DNA from: Moraxellaceae bacterium AER2_44_116
GTDB lineage: Bacteria; Pseudomonadota; Gammaproteobacteria; Pseudomonadales; Moraxellaceae
Direction of reading: 5' to 3'
Assembly (NCBI GenBank): GCA_006546595.1
Contig: VIAD01000012.1
Location: forward strand, 14,122-46,121
Length of the DNA: 32,000 bases
Shown: piece after piece, positions 10,979 through 29,498 of the stretch
How positions within the stretch are numbered: the first letter of the stretch is position 1
How the letters are laid out: the number at the start of each line of letters is the position of its first letter
The notes under the pieces: generated by a model
Databases searched by the model: none
What the model was told of the DNA's origin: nothing
What the model saw: only the letters and a program-made list of their open reading frames with translations
Program-made: the position numbers and the translations under genes

Positions 10979-11005
10979 AAGACTAAAAATCAGGGATGGA
11001 TTTTA

Positions 11006-13447
11006 ATGGACAACTATGTCGCACATGTTCGTAAGATTGATGGACAAAAGCAAACAGTTCAACAGCATCTATTAAGTGTCAGTGACATTACAGGTCAGTT
11101 GGCAAATAAAATTGGACTAAAAGAAGCGGGTGAGCTTATTGGCTTGCTTCATGATTTTGGCAAGTATAGCCAGTCTTTCCAAAACTACATCCAGTCGGCT
11201 ACAGGGATTCTAAACTCTGATTTAGATGATGATTTTGTAGATATAAATGCACTAAAAGGAAAAATTGACCACTCATCGGCAGGTGCACAATGGATATGGC
11301 AACAATTCAGCCAAAGGCTTAATGGTGTAGGTGCACTATGTGCACAGATTATGGCTTTATGTATAGCATCACATCACAGTGGATTAATTGACTGTTTAAA
11401 GCCAGAAGGCGTGGATAGCTTTAGTGATCGAATGAAAAAATCTGATGAAAATACACATTTATCAGAGTGTAAGTTAAATGCGGACTCTCTCATTCTAACT
11501 AAAGCAACAGCACTCGCAGATCCTCATCTTCTAAAAAATATGTTCATGCAGTTACAGGCTGTTTTACGGCCTGAGCAACATAATCAAAAAATTTCAGAAA
11601 AAATTAAATATTTCTATTTAGGCTTTTGGACAAGACTTCTCTTCAGTTGTTTGATCGATGCAGACAGAATAGATAGTGCTGATTTTGAACGACCTCAAAA
11701 TAAAAAGCATCGACGAAATACTCCTGTTAATTGGTCATTGGCAGTTGATAGAGTTGAGTCTTTTATTGATGCACTCAAAGTACGTCACAAGGTTGATGAA
11801 ATTCGCCGTGATATTTCTGAACGCTGTAAAGCCAAAGCAAGTGGTACGCAAGGTATTTATACTTTAACAGTGCCTACGGGGGGTGGAAAAACCTACGCTA
11901 GTTTACGTTTTGCATTACATCATGCGCAAGCGCATGGACTGGACAGAGTTATTTATATTGTGCCATACACCACGATTATTGAGCAGAATGCAAAAGCAAT
12001 TCGTGCAGTCGTTGAACGTGAAGGTGATGATTTTCCGTGGGTATTAGAACATCATTCAAATTTAGAACCAGAGCAGCAAACATGGCGTAGTAAGCTAGTT
12101 GCTGAGAATTGGGATTCACCTATTGTTTTGACAACAATGGTGCAGTTTTTAGAAACTCTATTTAGTGGTGGTACACGCGGTGTAAGGCGAATGCATCAAC
12201 TCACAAATAGCGTAATTGTCTTTGATGAAATTCAAACGCTACCCATTAATTGCACGCATTTATTTTGTAATGCACTTAATTTCTTAGCAACTCATACTAA
12301 AACAACAGCGGTGCTATGTACGGCAACACAACCTTTGTTGCATCGGTTAAAAAATACTGAAAAAGGGCAGTTGTTTATTCCTGTTGAAAACGAGTTGGTT
12401 CATGATGTGGATCGGCTTTTTCAACAACTTGAGCGGGTTAAGATTAAAAATAAAGTTCGTGTGAATGGTTGGAGTGAGCAAGAAATCGCCAAGCTTGCTC
12501 TTGATGAGTTGAACGAAAAAGGAAGTTGTCTTGTTATCGTCAATACTAAAGCATGGGCGCAGAAGTTATATGAAGCCTGTACAAAAAAAGTAGAAAAAGG
12601 ATCGATCTTTCATTTGAGTACCAGTCAATGCCCTGCACATCGTCAGATTATTCTAGCGCAAGTACGCTCTCGGTTAGATCATAACTTGCCTGTGTTATGT
12701 ATAAGTACCCAACTGATTGAGGCGGGTGTTGATGTTGATTTTGCAAGTGTTATTCGATTTTTGGCAGGCTTGGACTCTGTGGCGCAAGCAGCAGGTCGTT
12801 GCAATCGAAATGGTGAGCGAGATATATCTGAAGTCCATTTACTTAATCCAGATCAAGAGCCAATAGACACATTAGTTGATATTAAAGTTGGTCAGGAAAA
12901 AATACGGCGTATTTTAGATGAGTCCGCAGATAAAGATTTGTTAACCCCAGCGGTTATGGAAAAGTATTTTGATTATTATTTTTATAGCCGATCCGCCGAA
13001 ATGGATTATCAATTAACTGAAAAGCAGGCTACTCGAACTGATAGTTTGTTGAATTTACTGAGTGATAATCCTAAAAATATCATATCACGCCAATCTGCAA
13101 TACCTATGTTACGACAGTCATTTATGACAGCGGGCAAAGCATTTAAGGCAATTGATGCACCTACTGAATCTGTGATTGTGCCTTATGGTGAAGGAAGGCA
13201 ACTAATTATTGATCTAGGAGATCAAGAGAATGAGTTTGATGTTGCTCGTTATTATACATTACTGAAAAAAGCACAAAAATTTAGCGTTAATGTCTTTCCT
13301 AATGTTTGGCGAAAGCTGCTTGACGCACATGCTGTATGCGAAATAAAAGCGGGTGAAGGCATTTATTGTTTGGATAAGCGTTACTACAGTGAAGCTTTTG
13401 GATTATCAACTGAGGTTGTTAGTCAGGCTGATTTTTTATCATTTTAG
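11006..13447 (+). CDS. cas3: Cas3 nuclease-helicase (HD domain plus SF2 helicase), type I
   Basis: 813 aa. HD motifs are present (LLHDFGKYS, ASHHSGL, LIDADRIDS). Helicase motifs are present: motif I (VPTGGGKTY), motif II (VFDEIQ) and motif VI (AAGRCNRNG). Confidence 0.95.
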   Translation: MDNYVAHVRKIDGQKQTVQQHLLSVSDITGQLANKIGLKEAGELIGLLHDFGKYSQSFQNYIQSATGILNSDLDDDFVDINALKGKIDHSSAGAQWIWQQFSQRLNGVGALCAQIMALCIASHHSGLIDCLKPEGVDSFSDRMKKSDENTHLSECKLNADSLILTKATALADPHLLKNMFMQLQAVLRPEQHNQKISEKIKYFYLGFWTRLLFSCLIDADRIDSADFERPQNKKHRRNTPVNWSLAVDRVESFIDALKVRHKVDEIRRDISERCKAKASGTQGIYTLTVPTGGGKTYASLRFALHHAQAHGLDRVIYIVPYTTIIEQNAKAIRAVVEREGDDFPWVLEHHSNLEPEQQTWRSKLVAENWDSPIVLTTMVQFLETLFSGGTRGVRRMHQLTNSVIVFDEIQTLPINCTHLFCNALNFLATHTKTTAVLCTATQPLLHRLKNTEKGQLFIPVENELVHDVDRLFQQLERVKIKNKVRVNGWSEQEIAKLALDELNEKGSCLVIVNTKAWAQKLYEACTKKVEKGSIFHLSTSQCPAHRQIILAQVRSRLDHNLPVLCISTQLIEAGVDVDFASVIRFLAGLDSVAQAAGRCNRNGERDISEVHLLNPDQEPIDTLVDIKVGQEKIRRILDESADKDLLTPAVMEKYFDYYFYSRSAEMDYQLTEKQATRTDSLLNLLSDNPKNIISRQSAIPMLRQSFMTAGKAFKAIDAPTESVIVPYGEGRQLIIDLGDQENEFDVARYYTLLKKAQKFSVNVFPNVWRKLLDAHAVCEIKAGEGIYCLDKRYYSEAFGLSTEVVSQADFLSF

Positions 13448-13456
13448 AAAGGAGTC

Positions 13457-14176
13457 ATGATGGAAGTTCCTAAAAATAGTATTAGTTTCCGATTGTGGGG
13501 GCGTTATGCGTTATTTACTGACCCTATTACTAAAATCGGTGGTGAGAAATGCTCCTATCATATTCCTACTTATGAGGCGATTAAGGGTGTTTTGAAGTCG
13601 ATTTATTGGAAGCCTACTATTACATGGTATGTCGATAAAGTTAGGGTGATGAAACCGTTAAGAACGCAAACTAAAGGTGTAAAACCCTTAGTTTGGAGTG
13701 CTGGTGGCAATAGCCTTGCTATCTATACGTTTTTGCACGATGTTGAATATCAAGTACAAGCGCATTTTGAATGGAATGAGCACCGTCCTGAATTGGCTCG
13801 GGACAGAGTTGATGGTAAGCATTTTAGTATTGCTAAACGAATGTTAGAAAAAGGTGGACGGCAGGATGTTTTTTTGGGGACACGAGATTGTCAGGGTTAT
13901 GTAGAGCCTTGTGAGTTTGGTGAGGGAGAGAGTCCTTACGCTAATATTGACGAATTGGGTTTTGGGTTGATGTTTCATGGCTTTGATTATCCTGATGAAA
14001 CAGGAGTGGATGAATTGCGTAGCCGTTTTTGGCGAGCAAACATGAGGCATGGCATTATTGAATACCCTAGACCTGAAAATTGTGAGATTAATCGTTTTGT
14101 TCGAGTGATGACTGCCAAAGAGTTTGCGCTAGGAGAAAGCGTATTAGCAGTAGAGCAAGAAGAGGTGCAATCATGA
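13457..14176 (+). CDS. cas5: Cas5c (Cas5d) pre-crRNA endoribonuclease, type I-C
   Basis: 239 aa. The N-terminus FRLWGRYALFTDPITKIGGEKCSYHIPTYEAIKGVLKSIYWKP is characteristic of subtype I-C Cas5. AAAGGAG lies upstream. Confidence 0.93.
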   Translation: MMEVPKNSISFRLWGRYALFTDPITKIGGEKCSYHIPTYEAIKGVLKSIYWKPTITWYVDKVRVMKPLRTQTKGVKPLVWSAGGNSLAIYTFLHDVEYQVQAHFEWNEHRPELARDRVDGKHFSIAKRMLEKGGRQDVFLGTRDCQGYVEPCEFGEGESPYANIDELGFGLMFHGFDYPDETGVDELRSRFWRANMRHGIIEYPRPENCEINRFVRVMTAKEFALGESVLAVEQEEVQS

Positions 14177-16185
14177 GTTGGATGGCAAAGCTCTACGAGA
14201 CATATGAAGCAGGTTTGTTACTGACAGACCTGCCTGATGATAAGCGTCTTATGCCCACTAGCCACACATTGCAAAATGCACATATCAATATTGCTATTGA
14301 TGGTGAAGGAAATTTTAAACGAGCATCTGTACTAGAAAAAACGCAAATTGTATTACCTGCTACTGAACGTTCAGCAAGTCGTAGTAGTGGTGAGGCTCCA
14401 CACCCATTAGCGGATAAATTGCAATATGTTGCTCAAGATTATGCTGCTTATGGTGGACTGAAAAAGCCTTATTTTGATGGATATAAAAAGCTTCTTTCTT
14501 CATGGTGTCTTTCTGAATTTTCTCATCCCAAAGCAACAGCAGTTTTACGTTATATTGAAAAAGGGACTGTGATTAAAGATCTTATTGATCAGAAAGTTGT
14601 TTTTATTGGTGATGATGGACTGTTATTAACATCATGGGTAAATGCTACAGATGATTCCAATCCGACACCAACACTTTTTAAGGTGCTACCTAAAGAAAAA
14701 GGTTTATTAGATCAAGGCTCTGCGTTGGTGTGTTGGACGGTTGAAATAGACTCTAATCCTAATGCCGACACATGGAAGGATAGAACGCTACAGGATAGTT
14801 GGATTGCTTTTGATAACTCTGAAGATAGTGAAGCGGGTTTATGTTTTGTCACAGGTAAAGTTCAATCATTATCTATTAATCATCCTGCAAAAATTCGCCA
14901 CTCAGGAGATAAAGCAAAGCTAATTTCTTCAAACGATACCAGTGGATACACGTATCGGGGGCGGTTTTTGGATAATAAGGAGGCGTGTGGCGTAGGGTTT
15001 GATGTATCGCAAAAGGCTCATAATGCCTTGCGTTGGTTGGTTTCACGGCAAGGTTATCGTAATGGTGATCAGGCATTTGTCTCTTGGGCTGTTTCTGGTA
15101 AAGACATTCCCGAACCATTACAAGACGCTTTTCATTTGTTTTCAAATTTTAATTTTGATGATTTAGATGATAGTGAACCGCATAGATTAAATGAAGATAC
15201 TGTTATAGATCGTAGCCGTGATATAGGCGAGTCATTTGCCCATCAACTTAATAAATACATGGCAGGCTATCGAGCAAAATTAGATCCAAATGAGCAAATT
15301 GTAATTATCGGCCTTGATGCAGCAACGCCAGGGCGAATGGGTATTATTTATTACCGTGAGTTATTAGGCAGTGAGTTTTTACAAAGGCTTGAACATTGGC
15401 ATAAAAGCTTTGCATGGCCACAAAGACATACCATAGACGTGCCTAGCTTATCAGGTAAAAAACCAACGAAAAAAGTTGTTTGGCCTGTCAGTTCCCCTGC
15501 ACCTAAAGATATTGCTTCTGCGGCATATGGGCAGCGGCTATCAGATGAATTGAAGAAAAGCGTGGTTGAGCGTCTTATGCCGTGCATTATTGATGGAAAT
15601 CCATTTCCAATCGATTTAATGGATTCATGTGTACGAATGGCCACTAATCGCAATGGTTATAAAAGTGACGAACAATGGCTTTGGGAAAAGAACCTTGGTA
15701 TTGCCTGCGCGGTATATCGTGGTTATTTCCAACGCCATCCAATTAAAACTCAAAGGAGAGACTACACAATGGCACTGGATGAAAATAATCACTCGCGTGA
15801 TTATCTCTATGGCCGATTATTAGCCGTAGCAGATCGTATTGAGGAGGTTGCATTAAGTGTTGGTGGAGAGAGTCGATCAACAACCGCAGCCCGTTTAATG
15901 CAACGTTTTGCGGATAGACCTTTTTCTACATGGCGTAATATAGAGTTGGCCTTGCAACCGTATATGCAGCGTTTGCAAAACTCCCGCGCTGGTTTTTTAG
16001 TGAACCAAAAGAAAGAGTTGGATGCAATCAATGCCAATTTTAAAACTGAAGACTTTGTGAGTGAAAAAAAGCTATCAGGTGAGTTTTTACTTGGCTTTCA
16101 TTGCCAACGTCAAAAACTAAGAGAAAAAACTGAGTCAACTAACGAAACCATTAACGAAGTAAGCAGTGCAGGGAGTGAAGAATGA
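14173..16185 (+). CDS. cas8c: Cas8c (Csd1) large subunit, type I-C
   Basis: 670 aa. It sits between cas5c and cas7c with ATGA overlaps at both ends. Its size and position are diagnostic of the I-C operon order. Confidence 0.9.
   Translation: MSWMAKLYETYEAGLLLTDLPDDKRLMPTSHTLQNAHINIAIDGEGNFKRASVLEKTQIVLPATERSASRSSGEAPHPLADKLQYVAQDYAAYGGLKKPYFDGYKKLLSSWCLSEFSHPKATAVLRYIEKGTVIKDLIDQKVVFIGDDGLLLTSWVNATDDSNPTPTLFKVLPKEKGLLDQGSALVCWTVEIDSNPNADTWKDRTLQDSWIAFDNSEDSEAGLCFVTGKVQSLSINHPAKIRHSGDKAKLISSNDTSGYTYRGRFLDNKEACGVGFDVSQKAHNALRWLVSRQGYRNGDQAFVSWAVSGKDIPEPLQDAFHLFSNFNFDDLDDSEPHRLNEDTVIDRSRDIGESFAHQLNKYMAGYRAKLDPNEQIVIIGLDAATPGRMGIIYYRELLGSEFLQRLEHWHKSFAWPQRHTIDVPSLSGKKPTKKVVWPVSSPAPKDIASAAYGQRLSDELKKSVVERLMPCIIDGNPFPIDLMDSCVRMATNRNGYKSDEQWLWEKNLGIACAVYRGYFQRHPIKTQRRDYTMALDENNHSRDYLYGRLLAVADRIEEVALSVGGESRSTTAARLMQRFADRPFSTWRNIELALQPYMQRLQNSRAGFLVNQKKELDAINANFKTEDFVSEKKLSGEFLLGFHCQRQKLREKTESTNETINEVSSAGSEE
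15769..16185 (+). CDS. cas11: Candidate internally translated Cas11c small subunit (in frame within cas8c)
   Basis: In-frame ATG (Met533 of Cas8c) preceded by AAGGAG (15753-15758) with a 10-nt spacer. It would give a 138-aa helical C-terminal product, MALDENNHSRDYLYGRLLAVADRIEE.... Confidence 0.5.
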   Translation: MALDENNHSRDYLYGRLLAVADRIEEVALSVGGESRSTTAARLMQRFADRPFSTWRNIELALQPYMQRLQNSRAGFLVNQKKELDAINANFKTEDFVSEKKLSGEFLLGFHCQRQKLREKTESTNETINEVSSAGSEE

Positions 16186-17021
16186 GTAGTCTTGACCATA
16201 AAATTGATTTTGCGGTTATTTTTTCAGTAAAGAACGCCAATCCAAATGGTGACCCATTAAATGGTAATCGTCCTCGTACCGATTATGACGGACTTGGTGA
16301 AATAACGGATGTTTGCTTGAAGCGCAAAATTCGTGATCGTTTGCAAAGTGATGGATATTCAATATTTGTCCAATCTGATGAAAAGAAAACGGATGGCATG
16401 ACTAGCTTAAAAAATCGTGCGGATTCTGATGTTTATGGACTGGGAAAAGACGCGTTTAAAAAGAACAGTAAAGATGAAACAGCAAAGCTTGCCTGTGCAA
16501 AATGGCTAGATGTTCGTGCGTTTGGACAGGTATTTGCGTTTGCAAAAGAATCTGATGCAGCAGGTGTATCTATAGCTATTAGAGGCCCTGTGACAATTCA
16601 ATCTGCATTTAGTCGTGAGCCAATTAGTGTTACCAGTACACAAATAACCAAAAGCGTGAGTGGTGAGGGTGATGGCTCTAAAAAAGGATCGGACACGATG
16701 GGTATGAAACATCGTGTTGATAAAGCTGTTTATGTGACATATGGTGCAATAACACCACAATTGGCAGAGCGTACAGGCTTTAGTAATCAAGATGCTGAAA
16801 GCATTAAGTCGGTATTGCAGAAGTTATTTGAAGGCGATGCATCATCGGCGCGTCCAGAAGGTAGCATGGCTGTATTAAAAGTTATTTGGTGGAAACATAA
16901 CAGCAAATCAGGACAATACTCCTCCGCTAAAGTGCATAACTCTTTGACAGTAAATCCTGATGGTAGTTTTAATTTAGATGATTTAGATGGATTGACTCCA
17001 GAAGTTATCGACGGCTTTTAA
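16182..17021 (+). CDS. cas7: Cas7c (Csd2) backbone subunit, type I-C
   Basis: 279 aa. The N-terminus DFAVIFSVKNANPNGDPLNGNRPRTDYDGLGEITDVCLKRKIRD is a classic Csd2/Cas7 signature. Confidence 0.93.
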   Translation: MSSLDHKIDFAVIFSVKNANPNGDPLNGNRPRTDYDGLGEITDVCLKRKIRDRLQSDGYSIFVQSDEKKTDGMTSLKNRADSDVYGLGKDAFKKNSKDETAKLACAKWLDVRAFGQVFAFAKESDAAGVSIAIRGPVTIQSAFSREPISVTSTQITKSVSGEGDGSKKGSDTMGMKHRVDKAVYVTYGAITPQLAERTGFSNQDAESIKSVLQKLFEGDASSARPEGSMAVLKVIWWKHNSKSGQYSSAKVHNSLTVNPDGSFNLDDLDGLTPEVIDGF

Positions 17022-17030
17022 TGGGATAGT

Positions 17031-17051
17031 GCCACCTTCGGGTGGCTTTTT
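17031..17051 (+). terminator. GC hairpin with a TTCG tetraloop plus T5 between cas7 and cas4
   Basis: GCCACC (17031-17036), TTCG loop, GGTGGC (17041-17046), then TTTTT (17047-17051). It fills most of the 36-nt cas7-cas4 gap. Confidence 0.55.
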
Positions 17052-17057
17052 CTAAGG

Positions 17058-17717
17058 ATGGAAAAAGTGATGCAACATGATGAAATAATATACCTTTCCC
17101 GCCTTCAGCATTTTTTGTTTTGTCCGCGTCAATTTGCCCTTATTGAATTAGAAGGTCTGTGGGAAGAAAATCTCTACACGGCTGAAGGACAGCTATTACA
17201 CCAAAAAGCAGACCAACTCCAACAGCACACACGCAAAAATATTACAACAATAAATGCCATGCCATTGTCATCCTCTGAGCTAGGTATTCAAGGTGTGGCA
17301 GATGTCGTTGAGTTCTATAACTCTCAGGACGATGGTAGTCATCGACCTTTCCCCATTGAATATAAACGTGGTAAGCCAAAAGAGCATCGCGCAGACGAAG
17401 TACAACTTTGTGCCCAAGCTTTATGCTTGGAAAGTATGTTAAACACGGTTGTCCCAGAAGGAGCCTTGTTTTATGGCCAAACAAAACGGCGATTGGTTGT
17501 AACGTTTGATGCAGAGTTGAAGAAACTAACTTTGGATGTTATTGCGAAATGTCGAGAGTTATTAGTCACAGCTAAAACGCCTGCACCAATTTACGAAGAA
17601 AGAAAGTGTAATCGTTGTTCATTGATAGACTTATGCCATCCAAAAACGTTGTGCCGTCAACGCTCCGCAAAACATTGGTTTATAAAACAATTAGAAAAAG
17701 AACAAGGAGGAACTTGA
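17058..17717 (+). CDS. cas4: Cas4 RecB-like exonuclease with an Fe-S cysteine cluster
   Basis: 219 aa. There is an N-terminal Cys (FCPRQFAL), a PD-(D/E)xK-like core (GVADVVEF...EYKRGKP) and a C-terminal CNRCSLIDLC cluster. ATG 17070 is an alternative start. Confidence 0.9.
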   Translation: MEKVMQHDEIIYLSRLQHFLFCPRQFALIELEGLWEENLYTAEGQLLHQKADQLQQHTRKNITTINAMPLSSSELGIQGVADVVEFYNSQDDGSHRPFPIEYKRGKPKEHRADEVQLCAQALCLESMLNTVVPEGALFYGQTKRRLVVTFDAELKKLTLDVIAKCRELLVTAKTPAPIYEERKCNRCSLIDLCHPKTLCRQRSAKHWFIKQLEKEQGGT

Positions 17718-18757
17718 TGCGTCAGTTACGCAATACATTATATGTCAGTACAGAAGGAGCTTGGCTACATAAGGATGGTGAAAATTTGGTTATGGATGTT
17801 GACGGACAGAAAAGAGGTCGCGTTCCTATTCACATGCTGCAAGCATTAGTCTGTTTTGGACGAGTGATGTTGTCACCTCAATTGATGGGTTTCTGTGCAG
17901 AAAAAGGTATTACGGTGACTTTCCTCAATACCTACGGAAAATTTTTGGCGCGAATGGAAGGACCCATTAGCGGTAGTGTGTTATTACGGCGGCGACAACA
18001 CTTAGCATGTGAAAATCCGATCATGGCTTTAGAGATCGTGCGTAATATCGTATGCGCCAAAGTGCATAATCAGCGTGCGGTGGTCAGGCGAGTAATACGT
18101 GACCATGCTGAAAAAATGGACGATAAAGCCAATGGCGAGCTAGAAGATGCACAAAAAAGACTAAAGCGTGTGATTGAATGTGTTCGTTTAGAAACGAATA
18201 TTGAAAGTATTCGAGGTTTTGAAGGTGATGCAGGGCATGTGTATTTTAAGGTGTTTAATCATTTTATTCGTGCTCAAAAAGAAGACTTTATCTTCGATGG
18301 GAGAGAAAGGCGGCCTCCCCGTGATCCTGTCAATGCGCTATTGTCATTTATCTATACATTACTGACTCATGATTGTCGTTCGGCCTTGGAGACAACTGGG
18401 TTGGATTCGGCTAGTGGTTTTTTACATTTTTTGCGGGTTGGTCGTCCTAGTTTGGCTTTAGATTTAATGGAAGAGTTTCGGCCTTTTTTGGCTGATCGAC
18501 TGGTATTGTCGCTTATTAATCGAAAACAGATACAAGCGAGCGACTTTAGTTGTTTGCCCAACGGTGCTGTTGTTATGAAAGATGACGCACGAAAAACTGT
18601 ACTTATGGAGTGGCAGCAACGTAAAGCCGACACACTAACTCATCCGTGGTTTGAAGAAAGTGTGCCTGTAGGTCTTTTTCCGTGGTTGCAAGCACAATTA
18701 TTAGCCCGACATTTACATGGCGAGATAGATGCTTATGTGCCATTTTTATGGAAATAG
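17717..18757 (+). CDS. cas1: Cas1 integrase
   Basis: A start at ATG 17717 (MRQLRNTLYVSTEGAWLHKDGENLV...) overlaps the cas4 TGA by 1 nt and follows AAGGAGG. The track start at 17615 lies inside cas4 and is rejected. The product is 346 aa. Confidence 0.93.
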   Translation: MRQLRNTLYVSTEGAWLHKDGENLVMDVDGQKRGRVPIHMLQALVCFGRVMLSPQLMGFCAEKGITVTFLNTYGKFLARMEGPISGSVLLRRRQHLACENPIMALEIVRNIVCAKVHNQRAVVRRVIRDHAEKMDDKANGELEDAQKRLKRVIECVRLETNIESIRGFEGDAGHVYFKVFNHFIRAQKEDFIFDGRERRPPRDPVNALLSFIYTLLTHDCRSALETTGLDSASGFLHFLRVGRPSLALDLMEEFRPFLADRLVLSLINRKQIQASDFSCLPNGAVVMKDDARKTVLMEWQQRKADTLTHPWFEESVPVGLFPWLQAQLLARHLHGEIDAYVPFLWK

Positions 18758-18778
18758 GTTAATTCATGGAGAGGCGAC

Positions 18779-19069
18779 ATGATGGTATTGGTGAGTTACG
18801 ATGTCTGTTTTCAAAATGATACAGGAGCACGTCGGTTGCGAAGAATAGCAAAAGCTTGCTTAGATTATGGGCAAAGGGTGCAGTATTCGATCTTTGAGAT
18901 TGAGGTAACGCCAGCACAATGGACAATGTTACGGAGTCGCTTATTACAAGAAATTGATCCTGAAGTAGATAGTTTGCGATTTTATTTTTTAGGAAAAAAT
19001 TGGCAGCCAAAGGTTGAACATATTGGAGCTAAGGCTGTTTTGGATTTGAATGGCCCATTGATTTTTTAG
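18779..19069 (+). CDS. cas2: Cas2
   Basis: 96 aa. The MMVLVSYDV... N-terminal beta-strand motif and the position after cas1 support the call. Confidence 0.92.
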   Translation: MMVLVSYDVCFQNDTGARRLRRIAKACLDYGQRVQYSIFEIEVTPAQWTMLRSRLLQEIDPEVDSLRFYFLGKNWQPKVEHIGAKAVLDLNGPLIF

Positions 19070-19257
19070 GCTTGTAGAACATCTGCGAACCTTAAGTAAG
19101 CATTAAAATGCAGGTAGGTTCGCACCTTGTTTTTTGCATATAAAACAAGGTGCTCTTTAAAACTATATTTTTTATTCTAGATGATTGTTCGGTTTCATTA
19201 TGTGTTCGCATTTTAGTGGAAGATGTGCATTTGAAAACAGTATGTTATAACTAGACT
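19070..19257 (+). promoter_or_regulatory. CRISPR leader (AT-rich)
   Basis: 188 nt between the cas2 stop and the first repeat. It is AT-rich. Repeats read ...ATTGAAAC on the + strand, and the degenerate repeat is at the far end. This fixes the leader at this end and + strand transcription. Confidence 0.8.
19084..19153 (+). terminator. Two overlapping stem-loops just downstream of cas2
   Basis: TGCGAACCT (19084-19092) pairs with AGGTTCGCA (19116-19124). GCACCTTGTTTT (19122-19133) pairs with AAAACAAGGTGC (19142-19153) across an 8-nt loop, followed by T/A-rich sequence. The two stems share 3 nt, so they are mutually exclusive. Confidence 0.45.
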
Positions 19258-22200
19258 GTCGCGTCCTCACGGGCGCGTGGATTGAAACGCCTTTTTTAAG
19301 AGCTGTCTTAACGACCGCCACGTCGCGTCCTCACGGGCGCGTGGATTGAAACGTCGGTTGTTGATGATGATGGAATGCCGTTTGATCCGGTCGCGTCCTC
19401 ACGGGCGCGTGGATTGAAACCATTGAAATAACGTGACCTTGCGCTGCATAAACGGGTCGCGTCCTCACGGGCGCGTGGATTGAAACGGCAATTTATCCAA
19501 CGCACAGACAGGCATATTAGGCGTCGCGTCCTCACGGGCGCGTGGATTGAAACGGCTTTATATTTAGCGCAAGATTTTAAAATCTATTGTCGCGTCCTCA
19601 CGGGCGCGTGGATTGAAACTTAACAGGTTTATCAACCGATGCAAACGCTAGTCGTCGCGTCCTCACGGGCGCGTGGATTGAAACATCAAATGTACGACCG
19701 TATTATTGTCCTCAACAAGTCGCGTCCTCACGGGCGCGTGGATTGAAACGTCCCTACGCTCATCGTCGTGTAACACTCGGCTGTTGTCGCGTCCTCACGG
19801 GCGCGTGGATTGAAACAACTGACCGCTAGCACCGTCACTAATGAAAAAGTCGCGTCCTCACGGGCGCGTGGATTGAAACACTCAACAGTACACCCCTGTC
19901 GATGTCCCTAAAGGTCGCGTCCTCACGGGCGCGTGGATTGAAACTACGCCTATTGGTAATGTAATGTTGATTGCTGCAAGTGTCGCGTCCTCACGGGCGC
20001 GTGGATTGAAACAGTTTAAGGAATTATGGCAGATTAAAGCCTTGCCATGTCGCGTCCTCACGGGCGCGTGGATTGAAACACTAATGATGCCGATGGTCTT
20101 GCGTATGCTTATGAGTCGCGTCCTCACGGGCGCGTGGATTGAAACAGCGTATTAAAAACCAAACAAGGCGCGTCTTTAAGGTCGCGTCCTCACGGGCGCG
20201 TGGATTGAAACTATCGTGTAATAGAGTCGTTGGTTATTGTGTCGATGTCGCGTCCTCACGGGCGCGTGGATTGAAACAACGGACCCGATGGCGCATTGGT
20301 ATTGGCAAATGGTCGCGTCCTCACGGGCGCGTGGATTGAAACTGCTTGTGTAAGTCGATTTACGGATAACTGTGCTCGGTCGCGTCCTCACGGGCGCGTG
20401 GATTGAAACACCCGATGACGGTTTGCGTAACGTCACACTGGTGTCGCGTCCTCACGGGCGCGTGGATTGAAACGGCAGCGAGAGCAATTGACAAGGAAAG
20501 ATCTGCATTGTCGCGTCCTCACGGGCGCGTGGATTGAAACAATGCGCGGCACAATAATGAATCTGTGGCCTGGGTCGCGTCCTCACGGGCGCGTGGATTG
20601 AAACTAGGTTGTGAATAACAACTGCTATGAAAAACACGTCGCGTCCTCACGGGCGCGTGGATTGAAACTAGTGAGTGTTGGCCCACCTGTATCAAGAGCT
20701 AATCGTCGCGTCCTCACGGGCGCGTGGATTGAAACATGCAGTATGTAGCAGGTGAATCCCGTTTTATCCGTCGCGTCCTCACGGGCGCGTGGATTGAAAC
20801 ATCGTCTTGAGTTATCAACTCACCAACAACTGATGGTCGCGTCCTCACGGGCGCGTGGATTGAAACTTTGCTTGCAGTGTGGTAGCGATTTCCAGCATTT
20901 CGTCGCGTCCTCACGGGCGCGTGGATTGAAACATTCGCCAATTGCTGATGATAGTTATCGTCGTATTGTCGCGTCCTCACGGGCGCGTGGATTGAAACAT
21001 TAAAAGAACAAATAAAAAGCGGATGCAATAGCGTCGCGTCCTCACGGGCGCGTGGATTGAAACTACTTGGCCTGCCAATGTGTCACGGGCTTGGTTTAAG
21101 TCGCGTCCTCACGGGCGCGTGGATTGAAACTGCATAACGGGCGTGACTAACGGTTTTACTAGGTCGCGTCCTCACGGGCGCGTGGATTGAAACTTGTGCG
21201 GGATAGTTAAAGCCGCAAAAATCAACAGTCGCGTCCTCACGGGCGCGTGGATTGAAACTTTACCGCTCCAAAAAATCCCATTCAATTGATACGGTCGCGT
21301 CCTCACGGGCGCGTGGATTGAAACGTCTGATAACTCATCAATGCCAAAATGTTTTTTTAGTCGCGTCCTCACGGGCGCGTGGATTGAAACTTCAAAATTG
21401 AAAGCGATGATTTAAGATAAACGTGTGTCGCGTCCTCACGGGCGCGTGGATTGAAACAAATATGCTTTGGGAATTTCTCAAGAATCCTGAGTCGCGTCCT
21501 CACGGGCGCGTGGATTGAAACTTTTATTGTCATTGTCATTTTTTGAATCCTCATGCTGTCGCGTCCTCACGGGCGCGTGGATTGAAACATTTGATACGCC
21601 AAAAAATACGCAATTTAAAGTTGTCGCGTCCTCACGGGCGCGTGGATTGAAACGTGGTCTTGGCCAATGCCTTGAAACTTACTGTCGTTGCGTCGCGTCC
21701 TCACGGGCGCGTGGATTGAAACACCACGTAAGTGATATTTGTGCGAGTAATAGTTAATGTCGCGTCCTCACGGGCGCGTGGATTGAAACATTTAGTGCTT
21801 TTTCGCCACGATCTTCATATGGCTCACGTCGCGTCCTCACGGGCGCGTGGATTGAAACAATCGCCTACAAGAGCAATTTACAGGGAAATATGCGTCGCGT
21901 CCTCACGGGCGCGTGGATTGAAACCGCTATTTTGTATGCCTGACGCACTAGCATCACTATGTCGCGTCCTCACGGGCGCGTGGATTGAAACTTATACTAC
22001 GCGATATATAGCAACAGTGAAAAGAACGTCGCGTCCTCACGGGCGCGTGGATTGAAACGTTCGGACTGCCGCCATATCGCGCAATACAAGCCTGTCGCGT
22101 CCTCACGGGCGCGTGGATTGAAACGGGTATTGGTGGATTTTGATTTTGTGAAACGTGGGGGGTCGCGTCCTCACGGGCGCGTGGATTGAAACAAGCCTAC

Positions 22201-25200
22201 GCGCCCAAATCAAACAATTAACGGTACGTCGCGTCCTCACGGGCGCGTGGATTGAAACGGTGTTGTTCGTCGTTATGGTGCGAGTCAATCCAATGTCGCG
22301 TCCTCACGGGCGCGTGGATTGAAACATTGGGACTACCACCGTATCTCGCTATACAAGCTTGTCGCGTCCTCACGGGCGCGTGGATTGAAACTTAATCAGT
22401 CCGTCCTTTTTCCCGTTTTTATCAATGTCGCGTCCTCACGGGCGCGTGGATTGAAACTCAGCACAAATACGACTTAGATTTTTATAGCATCGTCGCGTCC
22501 TCACGGGCGCGTGGATTGAAACTTCTAAAGCCGATACTGTTCAATCTGCTTCTAAAGTCGCGTCCTCACGGGCGCGTGGATTGAAACATATAGTCAGGAA
22601 ATTTACTACGTAATTTAAACTGGTCGCGTCCTCACGGGCGCGTGGATTGAAACTCTAGCTCGTTAAGCTGATCTGTTATCGCTTTCTTTGTCGCGTCCTC
22701 ACGGGCGCGTGGATTGAAACGTTTTGATGGCAGACCAAAAGCCGAAGAAGCGTGGGCGTCGCGTCCTCACGGGCGCGTGGATTGAAACCCGTGATGAGAT
22801 ACACCTTTCCAGATTTTGGCTTAGTCGCGTCCTCACGGGCGCGTGGATTGAAACTCTGCACTGATAGAGATATTTGTTTTACTCTTTGAGGTCGCGTCCT
22901 CACGGGCGCGTGGATTGAAACTTGTTGATAGCAATAAAATCCCGTTAGATATGGCAGGTCGCGTCCTCACGGGCGCGTGGATTGAAACACATCATGGCGG
23001 CGACTATAGCAAGATAAAAACGGTCGCGTCCTCACGGGCGCGTGGATTGAAACCCATCACAGCGATAATAAGCACTCATTTTTTAACAAGTCGCGTCCTC
23101 ACGGGCGCGTGGATTGAAACAAAGTGGCATAAACCGCTTTGAAGTAGTCGTTAAAGTCGCGTCCTCACGGGCGCGTGGATTGAAACGTCGAAATGTGAAC
23201 GATGCGCCAAGAGGCGGCAAGTCGCGTCCTCACGGGCGCGTGGATTGAAACACGACAATACCAAGATTTTTACGGCAATAATTTAGGTCGCGTCCTCACG
23301 GGCGCGTGGATTGAAACCTCTATCTCTAGAAGTATCAAACCTTTCTCTAGAGCGTCGCGTCCTCACGGGCGCGTGGATTGAAACAAAAACGCCTACAAGC
23401 TCACTGTCGAGGCTGTAATGGTCGCGTCCTCACGGGCGCGTGGATTGAAACAGACAACAAGCCGTTAACCATTGGGATGACCTCATGTCGCGTCCTCACG
23501 GGCGCGTGGATTGAAACCACTATGACGGTGTCGGGGGAGTTGTTGACTCCAGTCGCGTCCTCACGGGCGCGTGGATTGAAACGTTCTGTCGTTGTTCAGT
23601 GTCTAGGGTCTAACGAAGTCGCGTCCTCACGGGCGCGTGGATTGAAACATTGTGGCAAATTCCGTGACACTTGGGCTTATAATTCGTCGCGTCCTCACGG
23701 GCGCGTGGATTGAAACCGTCTTTGTGTGGCTCTGCTACGCGTAAACCTGCCATGTCGCGTCCTCACGGGCGCGTGGATTGAAACTAGTCCCTTATCGCGT
23801 CTTTGAAACACTCACAAATGTCGCGTCCTCACGGGCGCGTGGATTGAAACTTTAGATCGTAGTAAGTTTGAATATTTACATAAAGTCGCGTCCTCACGGG
23901 CGCGTGGATTGAAACAGGGATTATCTCTTGAGGCGCAGATTATCTACCTGCGTCGCGTCCTCACGGGCGCGTGGATTGAAACGGGCGGCACATGGGCGGC
24001 TGGTTTATCGCAATCAATGTCGCGTCCTCACGGGCGCGTGGATTGAAACTCAATTTTGGCATAAGCAACAACATCTGCGCGTGTGTCGCGTCCTCACGGG
24101 CGCGTGGATTGAAACGACATATTCCATTTTGTTTGACCGGGTGTCGTGAGTCGCGTCCTCACGGGCGCGTGGATTGAAACTTCGTAGGTGTCACTTGGTG
24201 TATAAGAACAGGAAACGTCGCGTCCTCACGGGCGCGTGGATTGAAACATGTTCGTCATCGAAAATTTGATTTTTATTAGGTCGCGTCCTCACGGGCGCGT
24301 GGATTGAAACAGCGAATGCCCGTCAGAACTACATTTTGCTAATAAGTCGCGTCCTCACGGGCGCGTGGATTGAAACAGCCGTAACCACTGTACGCACGGT
24401 ATTTGAACAATGTCGCGTCCTCACGGGCGCGTGGATTGAAACGCCTGTAGCCGCATCAGCCACCGCCTCGACCATCTGTCGCGTCCTCACGGGCGCGTGG
24501 ATTGAAACTTTGACGCTCGGCATTAGTTGGTGATGTTTTGTTGTCGCGTCCTCACGGGCGCGTGGATTGAAACGACGCATGGCCGACTAGCCCACTTGCT
24601 TCTCATAGTCGCGTCCTCACGGGCGCGTGGATTGAAACGTCATCAGTTACGCCTTTGTAGCGTGTTTGATCTTGTCGCGTCCTCACGGGCGCGTGGATTG
24701 AAACCTATTTTTGGTAAATATAACGCGGCAAACACGCAAGTCGCGTCCTCACGGGCGCGTGGATTGAAACATTGAATGTGACATGGATTTTTGTGCATCA
24801 CGTTCGGTCGCGTCCTCACGGGCGCGTGGATTGAAACTTCTTCGGAGACTTGGCGCATTGGCTTACGTTGACGTCGCGTCCTCACGGGCGCGTGGATTGA
24901 AACCATTAAACTCGCACCCCTAAAATTTTATAAACATGTCGCGTCCTCACGGGCGCGTGGATTGAAACCATTGTCAAGCCCTCAATATTTACATAGCTAA
25001 TATGTCGCGTCCTCACGGGCGCGTGGATTGAAACACAGATGCACGTTTGTGGTCTTGGTCGTTATCAAGTCGCGTCCTCACGGGCGCGTGGATTGAAACC
25101 GCCTGAAACGCGCTAAATTCCTCGTCTTTTTGCTTGTCGCGTCCTCACGGGCGCGTGGATTGAAACTCGCATGAAAGCTCATGCAGTGCTGAATGTGCCG

Positions 25201-27687
25201 GTCGCGTCCTCACGGGCGCGTGGATTGAAACCTAAACCTGACGGCTTTGAAGATGAAAGCGAAGTTGTCGCGTCCTCACGGGCGCGTGGATTGAAACATG
25301 GGTTTGATGTAACTGAGATTTGAGTTAAGAAAGTCGCGTCCTCACGGGCGCGTGGATTGAAACAGTAGCATATCCGCCGTATGCAGTTTATCTTGGTAGT
25401 CGCGTCCTCACGGGCGCGTGGATTGAAACGCGCTAAAGCTCGTCGCATCAAGAAAAAACACGGCGCGTCGCGTCCTCACGGGCGCGTGGATTGAAACAGC
25501 TAAAGATACTTTATCTTCGACCCACACATCACGTCGCGTCCTCACCGGGCGCGTGGATTGAAACAAAAGTACCGTACACAACCATACAGAGGATACTAAC
25601 AGTCGCGTCCTCACGGGCGCGTGGATTGAAACTGTATAAGTACCATCGCCATCTGACCCACCACCAATACGTCGCGTCCTCACGGGCGCGTGGATTGAAA
25701 CGTATATATCGGCGCAGGTCGCCATTGATGACGGGGTGTCGCGTCCTCACGGGCGCGTGGATTGAAACACGGCAAGACGTAATTCAGGGTGCATATAGAT
25801 TTGTCGCGTCCTCACGGGCGCGTGGATTGAAACTTTTATTCGCGGCTTTAAATATGAGGAATGTGGTTGTCGCGTCCTCACGGGCGCGTGGATTGAAACA
25901 AAAAATGAAAGTCACACTCAAAAAAGCCAAGTCACGTCGCGTCCTCACGGGCGCGTGGATTGAAACCAAACATTCGCCATCTTCATTTTCTAATGTTGTC
26001 CGGTCGCGTCCTCACGGGCGCGTGGATTGAAACGGGTGTTAGCAGGCGATGGTTAACAATAGGGAAATGTCGCGTCCTCACGGGCGCGTGGATTGAAACG
26101 TCTGTGCTGTTTTTAGGTCAAACATATCAAGGCAAGTCGCGTCCTCACGGGCGCGTGGATTGAAACATAAACACAATTTTATTTTATTTGAAGTTCATAC
26201 AAGGTCGCGTCCTCACGGGCGCGTGGATTGAAACTGGTGCTGTTGTGCGCATTGATGCAGGCGCGGCAGAGTCGCGTCCTCACGGGCGCGTGGATTGAAA
26301 CCCAAAGTTACATTGATTGAACGTAAATGAGTCAGTGTCGCGTCCTCACGGGCGCGTGGATTGAAACGGTGGTTGTTGATATTTATATTGAATCATTGGC
26401 TGGTCGCGTCCTCACGGGCGCGTGGATTGAAACATTCAGTGTAGCCACATCATCTAAGCGCATTTTGTGTCGCGTCCTCACGGGCGCGTGGATTGAAACA
26501 TAGCATACGCTCAGAAAGTGCCGAGCAAGATATTGGTCGCGTCCTCACGGGCGCGTGGATTGAAACAATTTGATGCGTACATTTTTGCAGCCGATTACGA
26601 CGTCGCGTCCTCACGGGCGCGTGGATTGAAACCGCCAACCGTGTGCCTAAAAATCTTAGTGCCTTGTCGCGTCCTCACGGGCGCGTGGATTGAAACAACT
26701 GTCCACCCCAAAGCCGCCGACTCAGGACTAGTCGCGTCCTCACGGGCGCGTGGATTGAAACACAACATTTGCAGCGCGTACCTGTTTTGACTTCATGTCG
26801 CGTCCTCACGGGCGCGTGGATTGAAACGTCTTAAACGACATAACCAACGCACTAAAATAGTCGTCGCGTCCTCACGGGCGCGTGGATTGAAACGCTGCAT
26901 CTTCTAATGACGAAGCCAAAATCAGGTACGTCGCGTCCTCACGGGCGCGTGGATTGAAACCCAGAGATGGCCGCAAAAGCTAAAGCGGTCATGTGTCGCG
27001 TCCTCACGGGCGCGTGGATTGAAACCTCGTACAACTTTAGACACGCAACCGCACCGACAAGTCGCGTCCTCACGGGCGCGTGGATTGAAACCAATTGGTT
27101 TGGGTGCGGCAAAAAGACAGAGCCTTGTCGCGTCCTCACGGGCGCGTGGATTGAAACTGTCGATTCAGGCTCAAAGGGGGGCACTTGCATACGTCGCGTC
27201 CTCACGGGCGCGTGGATTGAAACAATTGAATTGCTTACGGTGATAGAACTATCAATGGGTCGCGTCCTCACGGGCGCGTGGATTGAAACTTGAATTCGAC
27301 ACGCCAAAAAACTTATACAACCCTGGTCGCGTCCTCACGGGCGCGTGGATTGAAACAACGCTGGACAGATTGATAGCAAAACGACAATGGAGTCGCGTCC
27401 TCACGGGCGCGTGGATTGAAACATGTCGGTGAATTTGTCTAGTGTTAGACCGCCGTGTCGCGTCCTCACGGGCGCGTGGATTGAAACATGATTAAGCAGC
27501 AAGCGTGAAGATACTGCTGAAGCGTCGCGTCCTCACGGGCGCGTGGATTGAAACTACCTCCCGTATTTGCTCTTTTACCCAATGAGTCTGTCGCGTCCTC
27601 ACGGGCGCGTGGATTGAAACATCTACGCCGCCAATCATGCAAATGCCGAGGCTAAGTCGCGTCCTCACGGGCGCGTGGATTTGTAAC
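19258..27687 (+). CRISPR. Type I-C CRISPR array: 128 repeats (127 consensus-length plus 1 degenerate terminal) and 127 spacers
   Basis: Hand enumeration of every repeat start, from 19258, 19322, 19390 ... to 27590 and 27656. The 31-nt repeat GTCGCGTCCTCACGGGCGCGTGGATTGAAAC has a GCGTCC/GGGCGC stem, a TCAC loop and a 3' ATTGAAAC tag. Spacers are 32-38 nt and the mean period is about 66 nt. One repeat (25533-25564) carries an extra C. The last repeat matches for 26 nt and then diverges. Confidence 0.99.
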
Positions 27688-27718: not shown

Positions 27719-27758
27719 CCTAGTCGTAACTTAAAAATCTTACGACTAGGTGTTTTCT
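27719..27758 (+). terminator. 11-bp hairpin plus T-rich tract at the distal end of the array
   Basis: CCTAGTCGTAA (27719-27729) pairs with TTACGACTAGG (27740-27750) across a 10-nt loop, followed by TGTTTTCT. The 3' arm contains the AGG of the likely SD for ATG 27759. Confidence 0.5.
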
Positions 27759-29498
27759 ATGTCAGCTTTACTTTCTCAAATTAACAACACCGCGCACCAA
27801 GGCGCATTTGGCCATAACCCTCGATCTGAACCCACACTCGCTCAATTAGCCGCAGGTAACTACAAAAAAGGCGTAGTGATGGTGAAAGGGTTAAGTATTG
27901 CCATTGAAAACCCCGCTTACACCTACCGCAAAGGCATGGATAAATCAGGCAAAGAATGGATGTGCTTGATGCAGGCACACTATGGCTATATTCAGGGTCA
28001 TAGAGGCAATGACGGCGATGAAATGGATGTATTTATCGGCAATGTGCCTGAAAACGACACGGTTTATATCGTCAATCAAAAAACAGCAGACGGCTATTTT
28101 GACGAACATAAAATCATGCTTGGCTTCCTGTCACAACAGCAAGCCGTTGACACCTATCAACACTGTTTTGAGCGTGGTTGGACGGGTTTAATGAGTGTTG
28201 TGCCTTGCACCATGACGCAATTCAAGTGGTGGTTAGCCAATGGTGATAAGTCACGGCCTGTCACTTTAGACCGCTTGCCCTACGCAGGATTAGAGCGTTT
28301 GGATAGTGTGATTTGGGGCGGTAATGACGGGTCAGACTTAGCCAGTCATAGTGGCCAAGTACATAAATTGTTGTACCAGATTCGCCAATGTGATGACACG
28401 CATCAAGCCTTAGAGCCTTTGTCTTATAACGATTTAGTGCAAGAACTTGGCAATCAAGGTTTTATGTACGAAAACTATGATGCATTAGTCGTTGAGTACA
28501 ACAAATTAGAGAAAAAAGCCAAGCAATTACTCATGGTGATGCAAGGTGCGGCCAGTAGTGTTAAGCCCATTGGTGTCACTGTAGGTAAGCCATTAACCAA
28601 GGGCGGTGTGGCTAATGTCGTTGCATGGTTTGAGATGGATGATGGTCAAGCCGTGGGTGTGTTTTTCCATAACCCTGATAAAACGCCTAAAAAGATTGAC
28701 CCCATGGACGAGATGATTAGCTACAAATGGGTGCTTAACAAAAAAGACATTACCATTGCCGTTGCGCCTGAGCAGGGTAAGGATTTGATTATTCGTACCG
28801 TCGCTAAGCGCATTATGCAGTTGGTTGAAAAGAATCATGACCGTTTTGTCAAAGCCAATGGTGACAAGGCCGCACTGAATCAGGCAGAGCAAGACTTAAC
28901 CGCTAAAGTGGCAGAAAAACAAGCGACCTTGAAAGGTTTGCAAGATGACGTTGCCGCGTTGCAGGCGAAGAAAGCCGAAAAAGATGCTTTTACACTCCAA
29001 GCCCAAACCGAAGCAGACCTACGCCAACGTGAAGCCGAAGCTCAAGCCGCTGAAGCTGAACGATTAGCGCAAGAGAAAGCTGCAAAAGATAAAGCACAGG
29101 CCGATAAAGATGCGGCTGATTTCCGTTTGACAGGTAGTAATTTGCCAGCCGATGTAGCGGCAGCAGGTGGTCAACAGGATTTATTAGCCAGCGGCAATCA
29201 AAACGATAAAGAAGATGCAGAAAAAGAAGCATTTGTTACCTCTACTCAAGAGCAACAGCCACCACAACCCGTAAGCGAGCCAGCTACACCAACCCAAGAA
29301 GACCAAGACCGTGAATTCTTACAGTCTGCTATTGACGAAAAAATCAACATTTTAGATGCCGCTAATGTCAATAAATTGGCCGAGTTATCAAAAATCTATA
29401 CCCAAGGTGACATGAACGGTCTGATTAAACAAGCCAAACAAGTTGCGATTTCCGCAATCACACGCAGCGTTGCGCAAGCGACAGCGAATATTGGTTAA
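27759..29498 (+). CDS. Inorganic-pyrophosphatase-fold domain protein with an acidic/coiled-coil C-terminal region
   Basis: AHYGYIQGHRGNDGDEMDVFIG resembles the family I PPase core (NYGYI...DGDPVDVLV). The C-terminal half is low-complexity and coiled-coil-like (EAEAQAAEAERLAQEKAAKDKAQADKDAAD). ATG 27759 is preferred over the track's GTG at 27750, which lies in the hairpin. Confidence 0.6.
   Translation: MSALLSQINNTAHQGAFGHNPRSEPTLAQLAAGNYKKGVVMVKGLSIAIENPAYTYRKGMDKSGKEWMCLMQAHYGYIQGHRGNDGDEMDVFIGNVPENDTVYIVNQKTADGYFDEHKIMLGFLSQQQAVDTYQHCFERGWTGLMSVVPCTMTQFKWWLANGDKSRPVTLDRLPYAGLERLDSVIWGGNDGSDLASHSGQVHKLLYQIRQCDDTHQALEPLSYNDLVQELGNQGFMYENYDALVVEYNKLEKKAKQLLMVMQGAASSVKPIGVTVGKPLTKGGVANVVAWFEMDDGQAVGVFFHNPDKTPKKIDPMDEMISYKWVLNKKDITIAVAPEQGKDLIIRTVAKRIMQLVEKNHDRFVKANGDKAALNQAEQDLTAKVAEKQATLKGLQDDVAALQAKKAEKDAFTLQAQTEADLRQREAEAQAAEAERLAQEKAAKDKAQADKDAADFRLTGSNLPADVAAAGGQQDLLASGNQNDKEDAEKEAFVTSTQEQQPPQPVSEPATPTQEDQDREFLQSAIDEKINILDAANVNKLAELSKIYTQGDMNGLIKQAKQVAISAITRSVAQATANIG

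Follow-up and report, generated by a model that had tools for sequence, protein, structure and literature searches.

Two spacers of a type I-C CRISPR array carry synonymous versions of one site, probably in a g3p-like gene of diverged inoviruses

The stretch of DNA considered here, 32,000 nucleotides of contig VIAD01000012.1 from Moraxellaceae bacterium AER2_44_116 (hereafter 'the window'), contains a CRISPR array, a leader and a complete set of CRISPR-associated (cas) genes. Our subject is a pair of spacers in this array, numbers 43 and 47, that are alternative versions of one protein-coding sequence and that very probably record two separate captures of a single site from two different filamentous phages (inoviruses). 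The elements of the locus are as follows.

11006..19069, + strand: complete type I-C operon, comprising cas3, cas5c, cas8c (Csd1), cas7, cas4, cas1 and cas2
19070..19257, + strand: AT-rich leader of 188 bp between cas2 and the first repeat, identified from the sequence
19258..27686, + strand: CRISPR array, in which 127 spacers (32-38 nt each) alternate with 128 repeats
22059..22093, + strand (sense of the CRISPR RNA, crRNA): spacer 43, the pair's newer member, of 35 nt; its complement encodes (K)ACIARYGGSPN
22326..22360, + strand: spacer 47, the pair's older member, of 35 nt; same protospacer and register, the complement again encoding (K)ACIARYGGSPN

The CRISPR-Cas locus is of type I-C. Its proteins match the expected Pfam families far above the cut-offs (Cas3_HD, DEAD and Cas3-like_C_2; Cas_Cas5d, 1e-47; Cas_Csd1, 3e-131; Cas_Cas7, 3e-75; Cas_Cas4; Cas_Cas1, 1e-102; and CRISPR_Cas2), and the genes stand in the order of the type I-C set, with a cas3 that combines HD and helicase parts, a cas7 of the Csd2 kind and no cas6. 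Gene calls identical to those of this operon are found in L006 (labels of this form denote reference sequences throughout). Type I-C repeats are typically about 32 nt long, with a GC-rich stem and a 3' end in ...ATTGAAAC, and the repeat of the window, GTCGCGTCCTCACGGGCGCGTGGATTGAAAC, fits this description: it is 31 nt long, and the array lies downstream of cas2 with the leader between them. Among the 128 repeats, 126 are exact copies. The last (27656-27686) is degenerate and stands at the end far from the leader, and another, at 25533-25564, has a 1-nt insertion and so measures 32 nt (GTCGCGTCCTCACCGGGCGCGTGGATTGAAAC). A repeat search that allows substitutions only skips this second variant, reports a false 104-nt 'spacer' assembled from two neighbours, and shifts all the numbering downstream. 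Spacer numbers in this article count the variant repeat and are one higher downstream of it; those of spacers 43 and 47 are unchanged. Since the leader adjoins spacer 1, the degenerate repeat lies at the far end and TTC occurs 5' of the protospacers when these are read on the + strand, spacer 1 is the newest; spacer 43, being nearer the leader, was acquired after spacer 47.

Both members of the pair are bordered by perfect 31-nt repeats. Aligned without gaps at offset 0, they agree at 27 of 35 positions and differ at positions 1, 4, 10, 13, 16, 21, 25 and 34, which confirms the coordinates, the sequences and the degree of identity reported for them in an initial annotation of the window. Seven of the eight mismatches are congruent to 1 mod 3. 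This bias towards one codon phase, also noticed in that annotation, is reproduced here and stands out against random mismatch positions (P = 0.002 for at least seven of eight in one phase). When all 127 spacers were compared with one another on both strands, spacers 43 and 47 were the sole outlier: the next best pairs reached 22 identities, the best pairs of 20 shuffled spacer sets reached 20-23, and the further allelic pairs that such a comparison might have revealed did not appear, none besides 43/47 aligning in register above chance. The similarity itself is all that speaks for a chance resemblance, or for a duplication within the array followed by mutation of one copy, and to these explanations, which the data refute, we attach next to no probability. 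Shuffled sets never exceeded 23 of 35; mutation within the array cannot explain eight changes in 35 nt, because the repeats are invariant over 126 of their 128 copies; and the changes are, without exception, synonymous in a gene that exists elsewhere, as described below.

The divergence between the two spacers is to be read on their minus strand, not on the + strand. In frame 2 of the minus strand both spacers encode ACIARYGGSPN, with no amino-acid differences, so that all eight changes are synonymous. The only out-of-phase change, at position 21, exchanges CGA and AGA, both of which specify arginine, and the terminal partial codon is xAG in one spacer and xAA in the other. Random sets of eight substitutions left an identical peptide in any open frame in only 9 of 100,000 trials (P ~9e-5).

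Nucleotide searches gave no meaningful match. BLASTn, the check proposed in the initial annotation, was run with each of the two spacers on 50,697 phage records and returned chance matches of 17-22 nt (E ~4) or nothing; in phage and plasmid collections, nothing matched the array as a whole over 28 nt or more. Self-targeting was considered and rejected: outside the array, the window is matched by none of its own spacers, the best being a single match of 16 nt. The target was found, instead, by scanning a degenerate back-translation of ACIARYGGSPN over IMG/VR. This yielded two contigs, of 7.6 kb (L001) and 6.7 kb, both of which encode a secreted, Cys-rich protein of 467-580 amino acids (aa) that has the motif close to its N-terminus. 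Further members of the family came from a protein search and from contig look-ups. The N-terminal 272 aa alone retrieved fewer matches than the full-length query, and a protein search with the protein of the second lineage brought no closer protospacer allele.

In gene content and layout, the targeted contigs are inoviruses of about 7 kb (6.7-7.6 kb). They are small, with co-oriented genes, and they encode a Zot-like pI ATPase, a small coat protein and a rolling-circle replication protein. The rolling-circle Rep gene lies upstream of an 83-aa major-coat-like gene, and directly after the latter come the target gene and then a DUF2523 gene and the Zot (pI) gene, the canonical inovirus arrangement. 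L001 matches Rep_trans (1e-27), Zot (1e-21) and DUF2523, and its Coat_B match, at 22.4 bits, is slightly below the cut-off of 23.5; for L008, L010, L011 and L020, matches to Phage_Coat_B, Zot and Phage_CRI/G2P_X_C are available precomputed. The targeted phages are mosaic: L001 has a g3p-like N-terminal region in common with L008 and L010, but a different replication protein and a different g3p C-terminal anchor.

By its position in the genome, where pIII-type genes stand between the major coat gene and the g6p/pI genes, and by its architecture, the target gene appears to encode the g3p-like attachment protein, a minor coat component, and its product would be the receptor-binding protein of these phages. 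In an alignment of 10 homologues, the N-terminus is hydrophobic and signal-like, with ...VFAAG at its end, and the proteins have cysteines that do not vary, a low-complexity linker rich in T, N, G and P, and a C-terminal hydrophobic anchor. The AlphaFold model is confident only for residues ~31-125 (pLDDT, the per-residue confidence score, 76-89; mean over the whole model, 50). Over residues 30-125, the L001, L003 and L008 proteins are 67-77% identical, and their genes are 68-74% identical in nucleotide sequence. The longest stretch within these residues that is fully conserved among the three is DLSKACIARYGGSPNE, and it contains ACIARYGGSPN. All three encode LSKACIARYGGSPNE at the site itself.

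Counting the two spacers and L001, L003 and L008, there are five DNA versions of the identical peptide, and these differ pairwise at 4-12 of 35 nt. The nearest allele of spacer 47 is that of L001 and L004, with four mismatches, all synonymous, and with TTC in the position of the protospacer-adjacent motif (PAM). That of spacer 43 is L008, with six mismatches and CTC in the PAM position; L001 has eight mismatches to it, and TTC. The codon that follows Asn specifies glutamate (L003 2711-2713; L008 792-794; L001 4632-4634). Where it is GAA, as in L001/L004 and L010/L011, it reads TTC on the spacer strand, and where it is GAG, as in L003 and L008, it reads CTC. As natural alleles have either codon, the PAM can be changed silently. 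Both spacers begin at the base that adjoins the Glu codon and both are 35 nt long; this start and this size are those expected of PAM-anchored, Cas4-assisted acquisition. Contigs of sequencing runs, namely the biofilm runs X1 and X2 and others from wastewater and the subsurface, provided no new protospacer allele when aligned to the target gene, and a shorter reference attracted no contig. One 515-nt contig of run X3 spans the site and is ~87% alike to the target gene; the matches in X1 and X2 were of low complexity and included no L001-like g3p or coat sequence.

These alleles bear directly on the target that the initial annotation had thought plausible, a fibre gene of the tail-collar type, which would belong to a tailed phage and would be read on the spacers' + strand, as FGLPPYRAIQA and LGLPPYLAIQA. 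The arithmetic of that proposal holds, in that seven of the eight mismatches fall in third codon positions on the + strand, too, and five are synonymous. The strand and frame do not, for the + frame entails two replacements where the minus strand has none, and a stop codon breaks it in L008 (GLPP*RAIHA) and L003 (GEPP*RAMQA), which are two of the three natural alleles whose minus-strand peptide is identical. In L001 the + frame amounts to a shadow open reading frame (ORF) of 90 aa, antisense within the gene of 486 aa. The LPPY motif of the window's own tail fibre, which had been offered as a further link, is a coincidence of four residues, the DNA identity there being 10/33, and BLASTn against phage records detected no tailed-phage match. 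These results refute a fibre gene on the + strand as the target, a reading to which we attach very little probability; the g3p-like gene of inoviruses takes its place.

We consider it very probable that spacers 43 and 47 are two separate captures, by Cas1-Cas2-Cas4, of one PAM-anchored site in the g3p-like gene, taken from two diverged inoviruses of Agitococcus-like Moraxellaceae. The initial annotation had likewise envisaged two independent acquisitions, at the same PAM position and in the same register, from diverged homologues of one coding gene, and the discovery of natural alleles bears this out. The alleles also bear out its suggestion of repeated encounters with a variable lineage: they vary purely synonymously, and L001/L004 and L010/L011 have TTC at the expected place beside the protospacer. 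Its other suggestion, re-acquisition against escape variants, fares less well: a divergence of 8/35 is of the level found between whole phage lineages (68-74% nucleotide identity), not that of a one- or two-step mutant. Given that the domain as a whole is only 68-74% identical, the 77% identity of the spacers is ordinary divergence between lineages under strong purifying selection. L001 and L008 have different replication modules (Rep_trans and Phage_CRI, respectively) and different g3p C-terminal domains, and the two spacers probably came from separate phages, mosaic in make-up, that had an N-terminal domain in common.

The proposed mechanism is simple. The protospacer is complementary to the codons of (K)ACIARYGGSPN, and the next codon, the GAA of glutamate, furnishes the 5'-TTC PAM. 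This codon would dictate at which base the spacers begin and that they run for 35 nt. The motif is the most conserved part of an otherwise variable N-terminal domain, with the result that lineages differ there at wobble positions only. And because the PAM codon sets the register, the wobble positions become spacer positions 1, 4, 7, 10 and so on, including those of the PAM-proximal seed, which synonymous drift would therefore strike. Type I Cascade, the crRNA-guided surveillance complex, requires double-stranded DNA with a PAM and with a PAM-proximal seed that is matched. The mismatches between spacers 43 and 47 occupy positions 1 and 4 plus six base-paired positions, and none falls on the flipped-out positions that recur at every sixth base. 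From these rules, we expect that the older crRNA, that of spacer 47, would give no interference on the spacer-43 allele, and hence no cross-protection; each of the two crRNAs should protect against its own allele only, and a second spacer at the same place would add protection rather than redundancy. The DNA attacked would be the double-stranded replicative form of the phage, or the integrated one.

Spacers 43 and 47 are by no means the only ones directed at these phages. Ten of the 127 spacers (~8%), numbers 2, 10, 34, 35, 43, 47, 58, 98, 101 and 120, match one inovirus family at the DNA level, the peptide level or both, mostly with 2-8 mismatches. The matches of the other eight are these.

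19353..19389, + strand: spacer 2; Zot-like (pI) gene, L008 3612-3648, 6 mismatches, TTC; peptide SVVDDDGMPFDP versus AVVDGDGMPFDP
19880..19913, + strand: spacer 10; Zot-like (pI) gene, L001 7016-7049, 3 mismatches, all synonymous
21458..21490, + strand: spacer 34; N-terminus of pI (Zot) in a more distant inovirus, L020 3755-3783, 26/29, TTC
21522..21557, + strand: spacer 35; regulatory region and start of a minus-strand gene, L008 4311-4346, 5 mismatches
23054..23089, + strand: spacer 58; partial match upstream of the coat gene, 26/28 to L002/L003/L005
25702..25737, + strand: spacer 98; Phage_CRI/G2P gene, L008 5089-5124, 36/36, TTC
25900..25935, + strand: spacer 101; start of the minus-strand gene (MKVTLKKAKS...), L008 4333-4298, 2 mismatches
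27158..27192, + strand: spacer 120; C-terminal part of the same g3p-like gene, L001 5660-5694, 2 mismatches, TTC

The match of spacer 98 is the sole exact protospacer found for the array, and it lies in L008, an inovirus contig of 6,859 bp that was assembled in a public run. Three of the spacers encode peptides that are preserved intact in the phages: TQQYTPVDVPK (spacer 10) is identical in L001, L003, L009 and L016-18, where the PAM position reads TTT; NMLWEFLKNP (spacer 34) is identical in L020; and VDSGSKGGTCI (spacer 120) is identical in L001. The 5'-TTC PAM of type I-C systems is present in the reference for six of the ten spacers, including the 36/36 match and the site of spacers 43 and 47 in L001, and the remaining references, which are diverged, have TTT, ATC, CTC or GAA in its place. 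Spacers 35 and 101 have protospacers on opposite strands with 23 nt in common, and five of these 23 positions differ between them. This is a second case of neighbouring captures made from different variants. Encounters with the inovirus family must have been recurrent, since the ten spacers derive from both strands and are spread over positions 2-120 of the array.

Such recurrence has a bearing on how the pair arose. Type I-C systems are capable of priming, and spacer 47, which matches the spacer-43 allele in part, could have directed Cascade-Cas3 onto the variant inovirus and so stimulated the acquisition of new spacers from that genome, one of which, spacer 43, fell on the same TTC site. Overlapping pairs of old and new spacers in Legionella have been interpreted in this way (PMC5071653), and no more than four positions of the array separate spacer 47 from the newer spacer 43, which is closer to the leader. 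Primed acquisition would be expected to show as a cluster of new spacers from one target, biased in position or strand around the priming site. Spacers 41-42 and 44-46 match no available inovirus reference in DNA or in peptide, and so no burst is visible around spacer 43; the ten matching spacers are scattered over positions 2-120, unclustered and with no strand bias (six from the coding strand, four antisense). Nor is priming needed for two spacers to coincide. The phage genomes have 229-273 TTC sites each, counting both strands, and if sites are used uniformly, the chance that at least two of ~10 spacers fall on one site is ~0.1-0.2, which makes one same-site pair unremarkable and a shared site something to be expected about 1 time in 6 without priming. 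We regard primed re-acquisition as a tentative and rather unlikely addition. It would, in any case, be a sub-mechanism of the two captures proposed above, with the target unchanged.

Another route to the same arrangement is recombination: the two spacers might have been acquired in different cells, or on different elements, and brought together by exchange between related arrays. Type I-C modules with Cas1, Cas2 and Cas3 at least 90% identical occur on many contigs, including that of a Rep3 plasmid, and from this it follows that arrays with compatible repeats coexist in these communities. The related array that we inspected, that of L013, with 76 repeats of a 32-nt variant, has no spacer in common with the window and no inovirus match, however, and the repeats of the window are uniform, with no direct evidence of a recombination junction. 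We judge this origin improbable, and more so than priming. L013 itself is JGI contig Ga0558718_11049, of 34 kb. Its I-C module is near-identical to that of the window, with a Cas2 in the same 90% cluster and one extra T in the repeat, and the contig is plasmid-like in carrying ParA, Rep3 and toxin-antitoxin genes.

Several observations weigh against the derivation of spacers 43 and 47 from two inovirus lineages, or against parts of it. No protospacer without mismatches was found for either spacer, the best having four and six, and consequently the source phages and their PAMs are deduced only from relatives; the nearest relative of spacer 43, L008, has CTC rather than TTC. The g3p-like protein matches no Pfam family, its AlphaFold model found no match in the PDB with E <0.5 by Foldseek, and neither method detected homology, of sequence or of fold, to the characterised N1 and N2 domains of pIII. 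The location of the site in a conserved motif is partly an effect of ascertainment, as diverged sources are recognisable only at conserved sites. Finally, the seed rules behind the expected absence of cross-protection have been established mainly for type I-E.

The host of the inoviruses can be approached through their integrated copies. The targeted phages occur as free contigs, and they are also integrated in contigs of 20.6 kb and 168 kb. In the former, the prophage adjoins tRNA-Met and is accompanied by an integrase (L004 12108-12184), and in the latter it lies beside ruvAB-ybgC-tolQRA and genes for XerC/D-like recombinases (L005 8001-11200 and flanks). Proteins that flank the prophages cluster, at 90% identity or higher, with proteins of Agitococcus sp. 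and of a 'Moraxellaceae bacterium' (a metagenome-assembled genome). The host was assigned from the names of these clusters because g3p peptide patterns, in two scans over bacterial contigs of one genome per species, retrieved no relative.

The carrier of the CRISPR-Cas locus appears to be of a different kind. No obvious chromosomal gene is present in the window, and the genes on either side of the locus are as follows.

2-811: C-terminus of a PacB-type terminase, 33-44% identical to PacB of P1, D6, Acinetobacter ABMM1 and Xanthomonas Rb1
881-2089: tail-collar fibre
Between the fibre and the gp25-like tail protein, upstream of cas3: baseplate wedge
2364-3497: gp25-like tail protein
3500-6217: SLT / tape-measure / transglycosylase-like protein
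27750-29498: InPase + DarA_N protein, downstream of the array
From 29511: ORF of >828 aa that runs off the window

The closest relatives are P1-like phages (ABMM1, Rb1, D6 and P1), and the order of terminase, fibre, wedge and tail protein is the same as in Acinetobacter phage ABMM1. The proteins of the window are recorded on a contig of 98,553 bp, where P1-like genomes measure about 90-100 kb; an exact look-up found no record of the tail-fibre protein, nor of the 582-aa protein whose gene follows the array. Judging by the gene content of the 32-kb window, the locus most likely lies inside a P1-like phage or phage-plasmid. The GC content of the cas operon (11001-19000) is 38-42%, compared with 45-50% in the phage genes on either side, a contrast that suggests that the cas module was brought in from elsewhere. 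The sequence of the window is also present in metagenome runs from biofilm, activated sludge and wastewater. Biofilm runs X1 and X2 contain its cas3 at 100% of sampled words, and their longest contigs are 93,076 and 93,068 bp.

Taken further, these observations lead to a broader proposal, for which we would put the chances at about even. A P1-like phage-plasmid of ~98 kb, resident in Agitococcus-like Moraxellaceae, might be using its own complete, adaptation-competent type I-C system over the long term to exclude chronic filamentous phages that compete with it. At least 10 of its 127 spacers would be aimed at one inovirus family, with spacers 43 and 47 following two lineages at that motif of the attachment protein which is most constrained, and a switch of the Glu codon from GAA to GAG (from TTC to CTC in the PAM) would be a ready route of escape. 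If this reading of the carrier is true, it would add a case of temperate phage against filamentous phage to the known CRISPR-mediated conflicts between viruses.

The pair has uses of its own, too. It is a clear case, from nature, of a known process in which one site of a diversifying virus is sampled repeatedly with the PAM as anchor, and it illustrates that synonymous-only differences between related spacers can reveal on which strand, and in which frame, a target gene not yet identified is read. Back-translation found the target here after nucleotide searches had failed, an approach that could be reused for the 'dark matter' of CRISPR spacers. The result links a family of uncultured inoviruses to Agitococcus-like Moraxellaceae of wastewater and groundwater, and it singles out, in the attachment protein of these phages, a motif that is conserved and probably under functional constraint.

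As a process, the double capture of one site is not new, and the pair is a new instance of something already published for type I-C; what is less ordinary is the phage context of the locus. In the type I-C arrays of Legionella pneumophila, older and newer spacers are directed at the same or overlapping sites of LME-1, the older ones mismatched in the PAM or seed, and these were read as signs of repeated invasion by variants, possibly with priming; two independent acquisitions at the same protospacer were also obtained in the laboratory (Rao et al. 2016, PMC5071653). The subtype, the combination of an old and a new spacer on one site, and the recurrent small mobile element are features that the two cases share. 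They differ in that here the register is exactly the same and the 8/35 differences are all synonymous, which points to deeply diverged lineages and not to recent escape; in that the target is an inovirus attachment-protein gene; and in that neither spacer is exactly matched in databases.

Inoviruses, for their part, are established targets of CRISPR systems. A survey of host arrays, limited to matches with 0-1 mismatches, found 1,150 inovirus-matching spacers in 42 bacterial families and one archaeal family, belonging to eight subtypes, and in some hosts a large share of the spacers was inovirus-derived (Roux et al. 2019, PMC6813254). In the present case, unlike that survey, the inovirus-matching spacers comprise ~8% of one array, mostly have 2-8 mismatches, and are apparently carried by a phage or phage-plasmid instead of a chromosome.

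CRISPR systems that viruses carry against their rivals are also known; examples are the type I-F system that Vibrio phage ICP1 directs against PLE, and the arrays of huge phages. In Acinetobacter baumannii, a prophage-borne type I-F system is aimed at a competing prophage, DgiS1 (bioRxiv 10.1101/2023.09.20.558655). The locus described here resembles these in the placement of CRISPR-Cas between phage genes, with spacers against another virus of the same host group. It departs from them in its carrier, probably a P1-like phage or phage-plasmid, in its complete type I-C system with adaptation genes and an unusually long array of 127 spacers, and in the nature of the putative rival, a chronic filamentous phage.

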